Assembly: GCA_030605835.1 (NCBI GenBank)
Contig: JAUWHO010000042.1
Location: forward strand, 5,732 to 69,731
DNA from: Candidatus Zixiibacteriota bacterium
GTDB lineage: Bacteria > Zixibacteria > MSB-5A5 > DG-27
Reading direction: 5' to 3'
DNA length: 64,000 bases
The translations under genes were made by a program, and so were the position numbers. Shown in pieces: positions 54,631 through 54,875 of the stretch. Each line of letters opens with the position of its first letter. Within the stretch, counting starts at the first letter, position 1. The notes beneath the pieces are model-generated. The model did not search any database. It was given only the letters and a program-made list of their open reading frames with translations, and had not been told where the DNA came from.

Positions 54631-54733
54631 CCTGTTCCCTGTCTACTGTCTGCTGTCTGCTGTCTACTGTCTACTGTCTACTGTCTACTGCCTACTGTCT
54701 ACTACCTACTGTCTACTACCTACTATTTGCTGC
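54631..54733. repeat. Longest CTACTGT-type 7-nt repeat tract (about 14 units)
   Basis: ccctgttccctgtctactgtctgctgtctgctgtctactgtctactgtctactgtctactgcctactgtctactacctactgtctactacctactatttgc. Confidence 0.9.
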
Positions 54734-54763
54734 CTTTCAACGGGAAGGAGGATTCACGACCCT

Positions 54764-54835
54764 GTTCGTCATGGACGCCCTCGTCCGTGACGTTTATCAG
54801 GTATAGGATGAGGGCATCCTATACCAACAGGGCGA
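54764..54835. repeat. About 70-bp two-hairpin palindromic element (copy 2)
   Basis: gttcgtcatggacgccctcgtccgtgacgtttatcaggtataggatgagggcatcctataccaacag; flanked on both sides by 7-nt repeat tracts. Confidence 0.8.
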
Positions 54836-54840
54836 GGTGG

Positions 54841-54875
54841 CCCTGTTCCCTGTCTCCTATCTCCTGTTTCCCGTT
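54841..54875. repeat. CCTGTTC / CTATCTC 7-nt repeat tract
   Basis: ccctgttccctgtctcctatctcctgtttcccgtt, ending 3 nt before the stop (54878) of the upstream minus-strand gene. Confidence 0.8.

Follow-up and report, generated by a model that had tools for sequence, protein, structure and literature searches.

The stretch of DNA analysed here, 64,000 nt in length and called the window below, contains 12 non-overlapping arrays of head-to-tail 7-nt units, which by sequence and placement are heptanucleotide SSRs of the 'long SSR' (LSSR) or STRR kind, in an uncultured Zixibacteria lineage near bin DG_27. Among long simple repeats, heptanucleotides are the commonest in many bacteria; they have been known since 1990. 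The arrays are assigned to this known kind because Rehm et al. (2015) already reported stop-proximal, sense-strand placement. The repeat class and its placement are therefore known from cyanobacteria and Xanthomonas; the window adds a new phylum-level host, Zixibacteria, and a non-quadruplex unit family, RAYAGKR. It also provides clean evidence that the 5' edge of an array is pinned to the stop codon and that array content turns over quickly. We give about an even chance to the reading that these are fast-evolving slippage arrays, tolerated because they form structure-free, C-poor untranslated RNA. The host lineage is Zixibacteria-related, with one window protein sharing 89% identity with a DG_27 protein; for the citrate synthase encoded in the window, a search by exact protein sequence found no recorded entry.

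Identification of heptanucleotide arrays

A preliminary description had listed at least ten purine-rich period-7 tracts. All 11 of the tracts it named were located by TRF and a period scan, within a few nt of where it had placed them, and 12 arrays were counted in the window. Periods 4–15 were scanned with a cut-off of 80% self-match over 28 nt. Period 7 gave seven tracts (443 nt) and its multiple 14 gave four, and no tract of period 4–6, 8–13 or 15 was found in the window at this cut-off. The density of period-7/14 arrays is 12 per 64 kb, against a background of 11 period-7 and 9 period-14 arrays (about 11–20 in total) per 914 kb of unselected bacterial contigs, taken from a metagenome scan for MacB that returned only relatives of ≤49% identity. 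The tracts had been described as neither CRISPR nor chance repeats, and this holds; they lack spacers, and 7, with its multiple 14, is the only short period enriched. A CRISPR array was rejected because the units are 7 nt long and directly abutting, whereas CRISPR has 25–40-nt repeats with unique spacers. According to TRF, each array has 3–14 copies. The 12 arrays are distributed over eight intergenic regions, and their overlap with confident ORFs is limited to the last three to five codons of three ORFs. A search against Rfam 15 at the gathering score gave no matches across the whole window, arrays included.

Unit sequence had been said to differ between loci. This is true on the surface, and the difference is only superficial because all units belong to one family, RAYAGKR: in all window arrays the unit types lie one or two substitutions apart in a single register and are not independent. 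The pattern RRYNGKR fits 70 of 95 units; of random heptamers, with any rotation allowed, about 11% would be expected to fit. Throughout the arrays, A at position 2, Y at position 3 and G at position 5 (90 of 95 units) are retained, and positions 1, 6 and 7 are two-way variable. A universal heptamer consensus, RAYNGKR, in which the window, Xanthomonas, Nostoc and STRR1 units can all be written, was rejected, as the non-A arrays in 120 loci of other genomes fit it only at the chance level (16 of 159; expectation, 10.9%).

Purine content of the sense strand is 67–84% per array, with 55% in the GTGAACY array. Across the 12 arrays the sense strand ranges from 0.21 to 0.50 in G and from 0.01 to 0.21 in C (pooled, 0.37 and 0.09). 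Predicted folding energies of the sense RNA are 0 to -8 kcal/mol, compared with -5 to -25 kcal/mol in background windows of equal length; the sense RNA is predicted to be practically without structure, G-rich and C-poor. Within most arrays TAG or TGA is present in all three frames. A-type units contain AGGA/ACAGGGA and C-type units contain UAG once per 7 nt. Shine-Dalgarno mimicry was rejected as a common property: scored against composition-matched shuffles, anti-Shine-Dalgarno pairing is above the shuffles in most A-type arrays and below them in C-type arrays. G-quadruplex formation was also rejected as a common property, the runs of at least three G being too few (0–4 per array). Classical quadruplexes cannot be the common factor because six of the 12 arrays have no such run and one has no GG.

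Placement relative to genes and stop codons

In all 12 arrays the purine-rich strand coincides with the coding strand of the neighbouring gene, in agreement with the earlier claim for the gene upstream. The pair behind LptG, the only plus-strand case, is inverted accordingly. The tracts had also been said to start at or overlap stop codons. This applies wherever an intergenic region with arrays has a confident gene upstream: in each of the seven such regions an array starts between -21 and +11 nt from the stop (Fisher-combined p = 3.5e-5 against random placement, seven regions). It does not apply to four arrays, of which T3a, T3b and T6b are internal to long spacers and T8 lies in a divergent region. 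Three ORFs draw their last codons and their stop from an array, with the C-terminal residues LVGSR, KGEW and KEQ. Ten of the 12 arrays are flanked by co-directional genes, as at macB-tolC and in a conserved gene cluster; one pair is convergent and one array, T8, divergent.

Array T1 (2439..2540, minus strand), with about 14 AACAGGA/GATAGGA units, lies directly 3' of the TAG stop (2541-2543) of a gene encoding a 755-aa T9SS aminopeptidase-like protein, and 106 nt separate it from the next start codon. The LptG gene (6421-7515, plus strand) is followed, 2 nt past its TAA stop, by T2a (7518..7560, plus), with five to six AGGRRAC units, and then by T2b (7562..7594, plus), which reads GTGAACC, GTGAACT, GTCAACT, GTGAACT. 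This idiosyncratic unit order recurs behind LptG in relatives and behind MacB in L209 and L210. Two hairpins follow the LptG arrays (7604..7663, plus; at 7604-7625 and 7645-7663), and the first, with its ATTATTTTGA tail, looks like an intrinsic terminator. The arrays as spacers ahead of intrinsic terminators were considered and rejected. Such an arrangement is true behind LptG only and is contradicted by the other window arrays: no terminator-like hairpin was found 3' of the window arrays between co-directional genes, and in other phyla just 11% of stop-adjacent arrays have one.

Three arrays are associated with MacB, all on the minus strand. T3c (21210..21300), directly 3' of the MacB TGA stop (21301-21303), starts with AGACAGG and TGACAGG and continues with about ten GGTGAAT/AGTGAAT units. 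T3b (20999..21075), with about 11 A-type units, is located within the 597-nt MacB-TolC spacer and is the counterpart of the array directly behind the stop in the relative L214. T3a (20882..20926) consists of GGTGAAT-type units and has a conserved 3' flank (20857-20885) in common with T3c (21181-21209).

The remaining arrays are also on the minus strand. T4 (53659..53692; GGTAGTA/GATAGTA units) covers the final codons and TAG stop of a 152-aa ORF (53685-54143). T5 (54134..54209), whose units change from GGTAGTA through GACAGTA to AATAGGA, encodes the final codons and TAG stop of the ORF at 54189-54590, occupies the entire 45-nt spacer and is the source of a predicted AGGAA ribosome-binding site ahead of the ATG at 54143. 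T6a (54840..54877), with five A-type units, starts from the TGA stop of a 398-aa gene (54878-56074), and the conserved flank CAGGGCCACCTCGCCCTG (54828-54845) comes after it. T6b (54629..54733), the tract under which the family was originally entered, has about 14 GACAGTA/GGTAGTA units, the last two being A-type, and a flank of the same type as that of T6a (54617-54634); it lies inside a 287-nt spacer, 38 nt from the next start. T7 (61304..61359; five GGTGAGT units, then two AGGTAGT) encodes the final four codons (KGEW) and TGA stop of a 98-aa ORF (61341-61637). T8 (63180..63222), with five A-type units in a divergent non-coding region of about 800 nt, is an exception to the stop rule because no credible ORF ending upstream was found in that region. 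The 'M15 peptidase' label of the preliminary description is weakly backed, with a PHROG endolysin match at E=0.0065 and zero Pfam matches.

Conservation and turnover in related genomes

Comparison of orthologous intergenic regions, as earlier proposed, found arrays at the same three gene ends in relatives with 75–98% protein identity: behind LptG in L001-L007 (80–98% amino acid identity), behind MacB in L209-L214 (85–97% identity) and in the 398-aa gene cluster of L219 (75% identity). About 42 kb of sequence from the next lineages (52–58% identity) contains no arrays, and the orthologous spacers there are 75–85 nt long. Presence at protein identities of at least 75% and absence at 52–58% matches, so far as these sequences extend, the sporadic distribution known for such repeats.

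Array content at the MacB locus is variable even among very close relatives. For example, macB of L209 and L211 differs at 3 of 1296 nt (99.8% identical), yet their arrays differ, and L212 has array content distinct from both despite 99.8% identical macB. Between the window and L214 (96% nucleotide identity) the arrays are entirely different beyond the first unit. Content changes both by gain or loss of units and by replacement of modules. At this locus, array content changes far faster than the flanking gene changes by point substitution, with the 5' edge staying pinned to the stop. The differing arrays beside 99.8% identical macB, together with a module common to LptG and MacB, directly support the earlier suggestion that the tracts are a recombination substrate. 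The LptG arrays, however, retain their unit number and the odd GTCAACT unit, although third codon positions are only 72–78% identical. Inheritance of the arrays with a phage was rejected, as the only related IMG/VR contig (62% identity in the major head protein) has no arrays; the 398-aa gene adjoining arrays is a conserved Zixibacteria gene and not obviously a phage gene.

Occurrence in other phyla

The A-type unit is scattered across many phyla. In a set of 137 (AGGRRAY)n arrays from other genomes, those next to stops are sense in 40 cases and antisense in 5, whereas over 0–400 nt the orientations are about equal (78 sense, 70 antisense). The low-GC, mostly cyanobacterial loci show 20 sense and 1 antisense beside stops. 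This sense, stop-adjacent polarity of the A-type unit was found in Zixibacteria, cyanobacteria, Acidobacteriota, Gemmatimonadota, Planctomycetota and others, and the count of 40 versus 5 makes the pattern published for Xanthomonas and Nostoc general for one widespread unit family. An artefact in which the TAG or TGA of sense arrays truncates spurious ORFs was rejected. When only ORFs of at least 200 aa are counted the asymmetry is still present (29 versus 4), as it is at a minimum of 300 aa (20 versus 3), and most stops of the stop-adjacent arrays lie outside the array.

Possible origin and function

On the reading to which we give even chances, the arrays would arise by replication slippage and by template switching between arrays, and would persist only where they are harmless, namely in the untranslated stretch that separates a stop from the terminator or from the ribosome-binding site that follows. 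The orientation tolerated would be the one with an inert transcript, free of hairpins, of C-rich unstructured Rho-loading stretches and of open frames. Their role would be at most that of a spacer, in 3' UTRs and between cistrons. Tolerance alone, however, fails to predict the polarity across phyla, which is confined to the vicinity of stops and also appears in the low-GC, mostly cyanobacterial loci. A Rho filter cannot be general because cyanobacteria, which are not known to have Rho, show the asymmetry. The stability of the LptG arrays looks like constraint or recent module spread, and three orthologous sites have retained arrays although DNA of no use is, as a rule, lost from bacterial genomes. 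Should the polarity be functional, it would point to an unrecognised signal where translated RNA gives way to untranslated RNA. Otherwise the arrays would still be useful as strain markers and matter as causes of assembly breaks and hot spots of intergenic rearrangement.

A small but real probability is given to the arrays being functional elements read by conserved machinery, such as the 16S 3' end, RNA polymerase via an R-loop or a widespread single-strand binding protein. The array would then set the fate of the transcript after translation (read-through, pausing or decay), and the polarity shared across phyla would be explained. Equally tentative is a functional RNA platform, which the preliminary description had named as a possible role beside that of an mRNA 3'-end stabiliser. 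In this reading a protein with a footprint of about 7 nt, or a ring or oligomer reading one motif per unit, coats the RNA behind the stop and controls mRNA decay, translational coupling or formation of the downstream hairpin. Candidates are CsrA-type GGA binders, cold-shock or S1-type OB folds and HutP-type UAG-N4 readers; S1, Csp and CsrA were proposed by MacGregor (2015; PMC4679880) for TAACTGA repeats. The conserved unit positions 2, 3 and 5, the AGGA/ACAGGGA and UAG motifs, the predicted single-strandedness of the array RNA, the strictly sense, stop-adjacent placement in many phyla and the unchanged unit number of the LptG arrays are all consistent with such a platform. However, a binding protein is not known for any class of heptamer repeat, length and composition vary freely between near-identical strains, sister lineages have no arrays, and no single motif, whether GGA, UAG or another, is common to all arrays, with anti-Shine-Dalgarno pairing likewise divided between A-type and C-type.

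Short conserved flanks and hairpin modules are attached to the arrays, and together they make up mosaic elements that turn up in more than one intergenic region, a view that draws on 64 kb and short contigs. The identical module, GTGAACT, GTCAACT and GTGAACC followed by AACCGGGG and a hairpin, follows LptG in five genomes and MacB in L209/L210. The LptG arrays and their hairpins form a composite, and L002 and L006 carry two to three tandem copies of the whole 170–230-nt unit; one L006 copy lacks the hairpin between two GGGGG runs. A further hairpin module lies between T6a and T6b (54746..54830, minus strand; GGTATAGGATG..CATCCTATACC and GGACGAGGGCGTCC), with a second copy at 50837-50906 and related copies in L007 and L219, and others are dispersed in the window, some adjoining arrays. 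The arrays are non-palindromic. These observations, with the conserved 3' flanks, would fit arrays as the variable core of small non-autonomous mobile elements (REP/BIME-, BOX- or MITE-like) that insert at gene 3' ends, stop adjacency being an insertion-target preference. We consider this rather improbable. A search for features of mobility showed neither terminal inverted repeats nor target-site duplications nor an associated transposase, T4, T5 and T7 are arrays without modules, and the module has no matches in viral contigs; ectopic recombination between arrays could spread modules equally well.

The preliminary description had suggested Rho loading on antisense RNA. Rho could set the orientation if an antisense loading site halted transcripts entering the 3' end of a gene, or if the sense RNA insulated operon spacers. 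Composition and low structure fit this proposal, the antisense strand having 0.21–0.50 C, 0.01–0.21 G and a predicted fold of about 0 kcal/mol over 33–98 nt, as does the predominance of arrays between co-directional genes with no terminator-like hairpin after them. The same sense, stop-adjacent placement in cyanobacterial loci argues against it, since cyanobacteria, to our knowledge, lack Rho. Several arrays are also below the typical length of a Rho loading site (about 70 nt or more), only five of 12 reaching 66 nt. We find it doubtful that Rho sets the orientation.

Purine-RNA/pyrimidine-DNA hybrids are unusually stable, and the sense strand is purine-rich exactly at the end of translation. 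After the ribosome leaves at the stop, the naked purine-rich transcript might anneal again to its pyrimidine template (an R-loop), or the G-rich strand might fold into a quadruplex; such a structure might pause RNA polymerase and stimulate repeat expansion, and would account for the position and strand of the arrays. Quadruplexes and an excess of transcript starts and ends have been reported at the repeats of Rehm et al. (PMC4692102). Given the scarcity of G runs in the window arrays, and the location of most of them in apparent operons, for which a pause or early termination would be a disadvantage, we consider this improbable as well.

That the tracts are assembly or sequencing artefacts, a possibility raised in the preliminary description, is practically excluded. 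Short-read contigs of relatives often break off within arrays (L003, L211-L213), and unit numbers in such assemblies may be unreliable because the contigs end inside arrays. However, independent assemblies covering at least ten samples and four sources (ENA, JGI, Logan and NCBI) show the same arrays at matching gene ends, and L209 (ENA) and L210 (JGI) are identical at every base across 332 nt. The arrays are not an assembly artefact.

Comparison with known repeat classes

STRR sequences were reportedly described by Mazel and colleagues in 1990 from heterocystous cyanobacteria, with units CCCCAGT, TTGGTCA and CAACAGT. STRR are dispersed tandem heptanucleotides of high copy number in non-coding DNA, and their variability has made them strain-typing markers. 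The window arrays are likewise dispersed tandem heptanucleotides in non-coding DNA, but they are not STRR sensu stricto, as RAYAGKR differs from all STRR units and the phylum differs. BIME/REP of enterobacteria and BOX of pneumococci are mosaic extragenic modules built from palindromes (REP) or 45–60-nt boxes. They resemble the window elements in having few module types, located at gene 3' ends or between cistrons, transcribed, variable in number and dispersed; the window elements differ in being built on heptamer arrays. MIRU, the mycobacterial interspersed repetitive units, are said (Supply and colleagues, 1997) to be 40–100 bp long and to contain short ORFs. They too are variable in number, lie within operons in one orientation relative to transcription, overlap the upstream stop and sometimes overlap the downstream start region, as T5 does here; the window units, in contrast, are only 7 nt.

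The part of the LSSR survey of Mrazek et al. (2007) that is relayed in PMC4679880 covers 5–11-nt units, with heptanucleotides as the commonest class, a sporadic phylogenetic distribution and polymerase slippage as the proposed origin. Like LSSRs, the window arrays are tandem, dispersed, non-coding, strain-variable (the LptG arrays being stable) and sporadic; as relayed there, LSSRs are a statistical class, whereas the window arrays carry a positional rule. TAACTGA direct repeats of marine Beggiatoaceae, cyanobacteria and Bacteroidetes (MacGregor, 2015; PMC4679880) have a single unit sequence in two to six copies a few nt upstream of start codons, and a post-transcriptional role is suspected. 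They share with the window arrays the intergenic heptamers and the fixed orientation relative to a neighbouring gene, and in some genomes TAACTGA is mixed with other heptamers. Unlike them, the window arrays abut stops, and their distance to the next start usually exceeds 35 nt.

The closest likeness in placement is to the G-rich heptamer repeats of Rehm et al. (2015; PLoS One, PMC4692102), GGGAATC in Xanthomonas and GGGGAYT in Nostoc. These are intergenic, present in many copies per genome and lie mostly between co-directional ORFs. They are found preferentially in sense orientation of the G-rich strand, within 50 bp of a stop or overlapping it, and nearer to the gene on their 5' side than to the one on their 3' side, and they vary in length and sequence among related strains. 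Oligonucleotides of GGGAATC and GGGGAYT form quadruplexes, and transcript starts and ends are enriched at the repeats. The window arrays are similarly stop-proximal, G-rich on the sense strand, strain-variable and mostly between co-directional genes. They differ in that RAYAGKR units have GG or no G-run instead of one G3-4 run per unit, in being longer, with 5–14 units against the preferred four, in having low or no quadruplex potential in half of the cases, in being coupled to hairpin modules and in their Zixibacteria-related host. STRR1, written as ACTGGGG, is the same unit as the Nostoc GGGGACT.

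Heptanucleotide arrays and their units

Tandem Repeats Finder returned period-7 arrays (or period 14 or 21 for the same arrays) within a few bases of every site named in the preliminary description, and the arrays are plainly visible by eye at 53500–55100. When the window was scanned for self-similarity at periods 4 to 15 (threshold 80% identity across 28 nt), seven tracts totalling 443 nt emerged at period 7, four at period 14, which is a multiple of it, and none at any other period. After removal of overlaps, 12 period-7 or period-14 arrays are present in the 64-kb window, compared with 11 period-7 and 9 period-14 arrays in 914 kb of unselected bacterial metagenome contigs obtained via a MacB search, indicating an approximately ten-fold, period-7-specific enrichment. 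The tracts are real and statistically solid, and the chance that they are an artefact is negligible. Short-read contigs of close relatives repeatedly terminate within arrays (L003, L211, L212 and L213), indicating that assemblies of this lineage are fragmented by the arrays and that short-read unit numbers need caution.

The unit types AGGAAAC, AGGAGAT, AGTAGAC, GTGAATG and GTGAGTG had been described as different. They do differ, but they are neighbours within one family, one or two substitutions apart. When each array was cut into units in its best register (95 units in total), 70 fitted RRYNGKR, which a random heptamer fits in any rotation or strand with a chance of 10.9%. Position 5 is G in 90 units and position 2 is A in 74; the other counts are A 53 and G 37 (position 1), C 47 and T 41 (position 3), A 66 and G 20 (position 4), G 48 and T 44 (position 6), and A 48 and G 37 (position 7). 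The arrays at 54134–54209 and 54629–54733 shift stepwise from GGTAGTA through GACAGTA and GACAGGA to AATAGGA.

Strand and stop-codon placement

Gene mapping by codon usage places 55 genes in the window, and the minus strand carries nearly all of them. Read in the sense direction of their neighbouring genes, the arrays are purine-rich (67–84%, but 55% in the GTGAACY array), with G fractions of 0.21–0.50 and C fractions of 0.01–0.21. LptG (6421–7515) is the only plus-strand gene with arrays behind it, and those arrays are purine-rich on the plus strand. They have flipped with the gene, indicating that the strand rule tracks the gene and not the chromosome strand.

Seven array-bearing intergenic regions have a confident upstream gene, and in each of them an array starts −21 to +11 nt from that gene's stop codon (Fisher-combined p = 3.5e-5 against random array placement within the same spacers). 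In three ORFs (C-termini LVGSR, KGEW and KEQ), the last three to five codons and the stop are array-derived. The array at 54134–54209 occupies an entire 45-nt spacer and provides AGGAA ahead of the next ATG. Exceptions to the stop rule are the arrays at 20882–20926, 20999–21075 and 54629–54733, which lie within long spacers, and that at 63180–63222, in a divergent non-coding region of about 800 nt without a credible upstream ORF. The start-codon region of the gene at 61627–62706 is duplicated (62691–62723 and 63264–63296, 94% identity), with the second copy 540 nt upstream, just 5' of the 63180–63222 array and inside this non-coding mosaic.

Two hairpins come after the LptG arrays, the first of them terminator-like and bearing a T-run. 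No terminator-like site was found 3' of the arrays behind other genes in the window, which fits a location within operons (macB-tolC and the conserved cluster at 53–62 kb). Immediately 3' of citrate synthase (8280–9494, minus strand), a 207-bp segment is duplicated in tandem (7939–8354, 95% identical). A GGCAGGGG..CCCCTGCC hairpin with a T-run is present in both copies, and with a third copy at 7883–7913 three consecutive terminator-like hairpins stand behind one gene.

Orthologous gene ends in relatives

T9SS sorting domains place the host in the FCB group. The nearest named proteins are from Zixibacteria, and the 398-aa protein encoded next to the 54629–54733 array (54878–56074, minus strand) shares 89% identity with a protein of the Zixibacteria bin DG_27. 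Three orthologous gene ends from independent assemblies were compared, and arrays were found at the same gene ends in relatives.

At the LptG end, A-type (AGGRRAC-like) units directly follow the stop in all five lineages (80–98% identity). GTGAACY (B-type) units and the same hairpins come next in four; in the fifth, L007, an inverted B-type array and different hairpins are found instead. The window and L002 match at 78% of third codon positions; their arrays contain equal numbers of units, with 8 substitutions separating them over 82 nt. L006, at 72% third-position identity, has an identical 30-nt stretch that includes the odd GTCAACT unit.

The MacB end is hypervariable. AGACAGG stands straight after the stop in all six contigs (85–97% identity), so that the 5' edge is pinned, and is followed in the window by about 10 GGTGAAT units. 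The corresponding array in L214 (96% nucleotide identity) consists of A-type units resembling the window's second array. L209 and L210 carry 10 A-type units and then a GTGAACT-GTCAACT-GTGAACC module with a hairpin, otherwise found behind LptG, and L211 carries 5 A-type units and then GGTGAAT units. The macB genes of L211 and L209 show 3 differences in 1296 nt, yet their arrays are different.

In a 75% relative (L219), arrays lie behind the same three genes of the 398-aa gene cluster, accompanied by the hairpin and the conserved flank (CAGGGCCACCCCGCCCTG) seen in the window; DG_27 itself has only a short degenerate array remnant. Together, these comparisons indicate that array position is conserved and that turnover of array content at MacB far outpaces point substitution. 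In lineages at 52–58% identity, no arrays were found in the 42 kb examined, and the orthologous spacers are 75–85 nt.

Polarity in other phyla and known heptanucleotide repeats

A scan for (AGGRRAY)x4, with one genome per species, matched at least 120 stretches. Among the matches listed, cyanobacteria are the majority, accompanied by Acidobacteriota, Gemmatimonadota, Planctomycetota, Verrucomicrobiota, Ignavibacteriota, Armatimonadota, Chloroflexota, Bacillota and an archaeon. Of 137 arrays assessed in these listed loci, those with a stop within −9 to +20 nt were predominantly sense at each minimum upstream ORF length: 40 sense versus 5 antisense at ≥100 aa (binomial p = 8e-8), 29 versus 4 at ≥200 aa (p = 1e-5) and 20 versus 3 at ≥300 aa (p = 5e-4). 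For ORFs ≥100 aa, the counts were 20 versus 1 in low-GC loci and 20 versus 4 in high-GC loci. The array itself does not supply most of these stops, which lie immediately outside it. Among the same matches, only 5 arrays end ≤20 nt from a sense start, and within 0–400 nt the orientations are about equal (78 sense versus 70 antisense), which makes the rule a matter of polarity: gene ends adjoin the purine strand at its 5' end but not at its 3' end. Where two genes converge, their arrays are opposed as inverted repeats. Such pairs, a sense array followed by the convergent neighbour's inverted array, were often seen (4175–4282 in the Ignavibacteriota MAG locus L031, and also L038, L041, L060, L087 and L095) and give long potential stem-loops between gene ends.

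In many bacteria, long simple repeats are most often heptanucleotides, which are sporadically distributed (Mrazek 2007, as summarized in PMC4679880). Cyanobacterial STRR are a further example, as are the TAACTGA repeats of Beggiatoaceae (PMC4679880). GGGAATC in Xanthomonas and GGGGAYT in Nostoc lie mostly between co-directional ORFs, ≤50 bp from or overlapping the stop codon and nearer the 5' than the 3' neighbour, with the G-rich strand as sense; they are strain-variable, and no function was identified (Rehm et al., 2015; PMC4692102). Promoter-proximal heptamers are reported to have regulatory effects in a 2022 preprint on Nostoc recF/recO, which gives no mechanism. The arrays in the window belong to this class and share its stop-proximal sense placement, so the central observation of the preliminary description rediscovers a known pattern, in a new lineage and with another family of units. 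What is new is modest: the Zixibacteria-related host, the one unit family of non-quadruplex type, its coupling to hairpin modules, direct evidence of a fixed boundary with fast internal turnover, and a cross-phylum count that, among the matches listed, extends the polarity to AGGRRAY arrays generally.

Origin of the arrays

We give about even credence to the arrays being simple repeats driven by slippage and recombination that survive only where place and orientation are harmless. The harmless place would be the untranslated stretch 3' of a stop codon, and the tolerated orientation would yield an inert sense RNA that is structure-free, C-poor and closed to translation. Sense-strand array RNA folds at a computed 0 to −8 kcal/mol, compared with −5 to −25 kcal/mol for random window segments of the same length (z +0.5 to +3.3). 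Rfam gave no match in the whole window. Most arrays contain TAG or TGA, and as 7 shares no factor with 3, a run of at least three units bearing them closes every frame; inspection of the complementary strand revealed no such stops. Complementarity to the 16S 3' end is above composition-matched shuffles in most A-type arrays and below them in GTAGACA-type arrays. The data show hypervariability at MacB, the pinned 5' edge, exchange of modules, restriction to the lineage and the RNA properties; the selective filter itself is what we infer. The explanation is weakest in that strong polarity is not expected from tolerance. The stable LptG arrays, moreover, look constrained.

The interpretation in the preliminary description is partly supported overall. 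Among the rival explanations, a periodic RNA-binding platform appears rather unlikely, and mobile composite elements targeting gene ends are also unlikely.

The arrays are parts of mosaic intergenic elements spreading between loci. Arrays share 3' flanks (21181–21233 with 20857–20909; 54832–54867 with 54621–54656), and hairpin modules recur in the window (7638–7665 and 25834–25861; 7694–7722 and 62961–62989; the similar pairs 20920–20960 and 62863–62903, and 54760–54830 and 50837–50906). In L002 and L006, a composite of A array, B array, AACC, hairpin, ATTATTTTGA and hairpin stands in two to three tandem copies, one copy without its hairpin between two GGGGG runs. The B-array signature is restricted to this lineage and had no match in viral contigs. 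Either mobility or recombination between arrays could account for the spread; the composites in the window and relatives' contigs showed neither inverted termini nor target duplications, and no transposase was seen there. The dispersed modules are short, 87–100% identical between loci, sometimes palindromic and distinct from the heptamer arrays, with stem differences mostly pairing-compatible, and probably form a REP-like family of this lineage.

Rho-related roles are improbable. Cyanobacteria are not known to have Rho, and if they lack it a Rho-based filter cannot be general. Equally improbable are R-loop or quadruplex effects once the ribosome is released. Six arrays in the window lack G runs of ≥3 and one lacks GG entirely, so the quadruplex proposed for Xanthomonas and Nostoc cannot be the common factor here.

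Other repeats and the gene cluster at 53685–62706

The ORF at 12681–14144 (487 aa) contains three imperfect copies of an 84–96-nt segment (13062–13415, 75–77% identical), probably a repeated protein domain unrelated to the heptamers. Of the 12 arrays, seven fall within or just past the conserved cluster at 53685–62706 (53.6–63.2 kb), whose gene order is shared with DG_27 and the 75% relative (L218 and L219). The 398-aa protein encoded alongside occurs widely among Zixibacteria. The cluster encodes a clear HK97-type major head protein (58950–60059; phrog_3922, E = 3e-63) and an endolysin-like ORF (54189–54590, weak match), and may be a prophage, a domesticated phage-like element or an encapsulin-type system.
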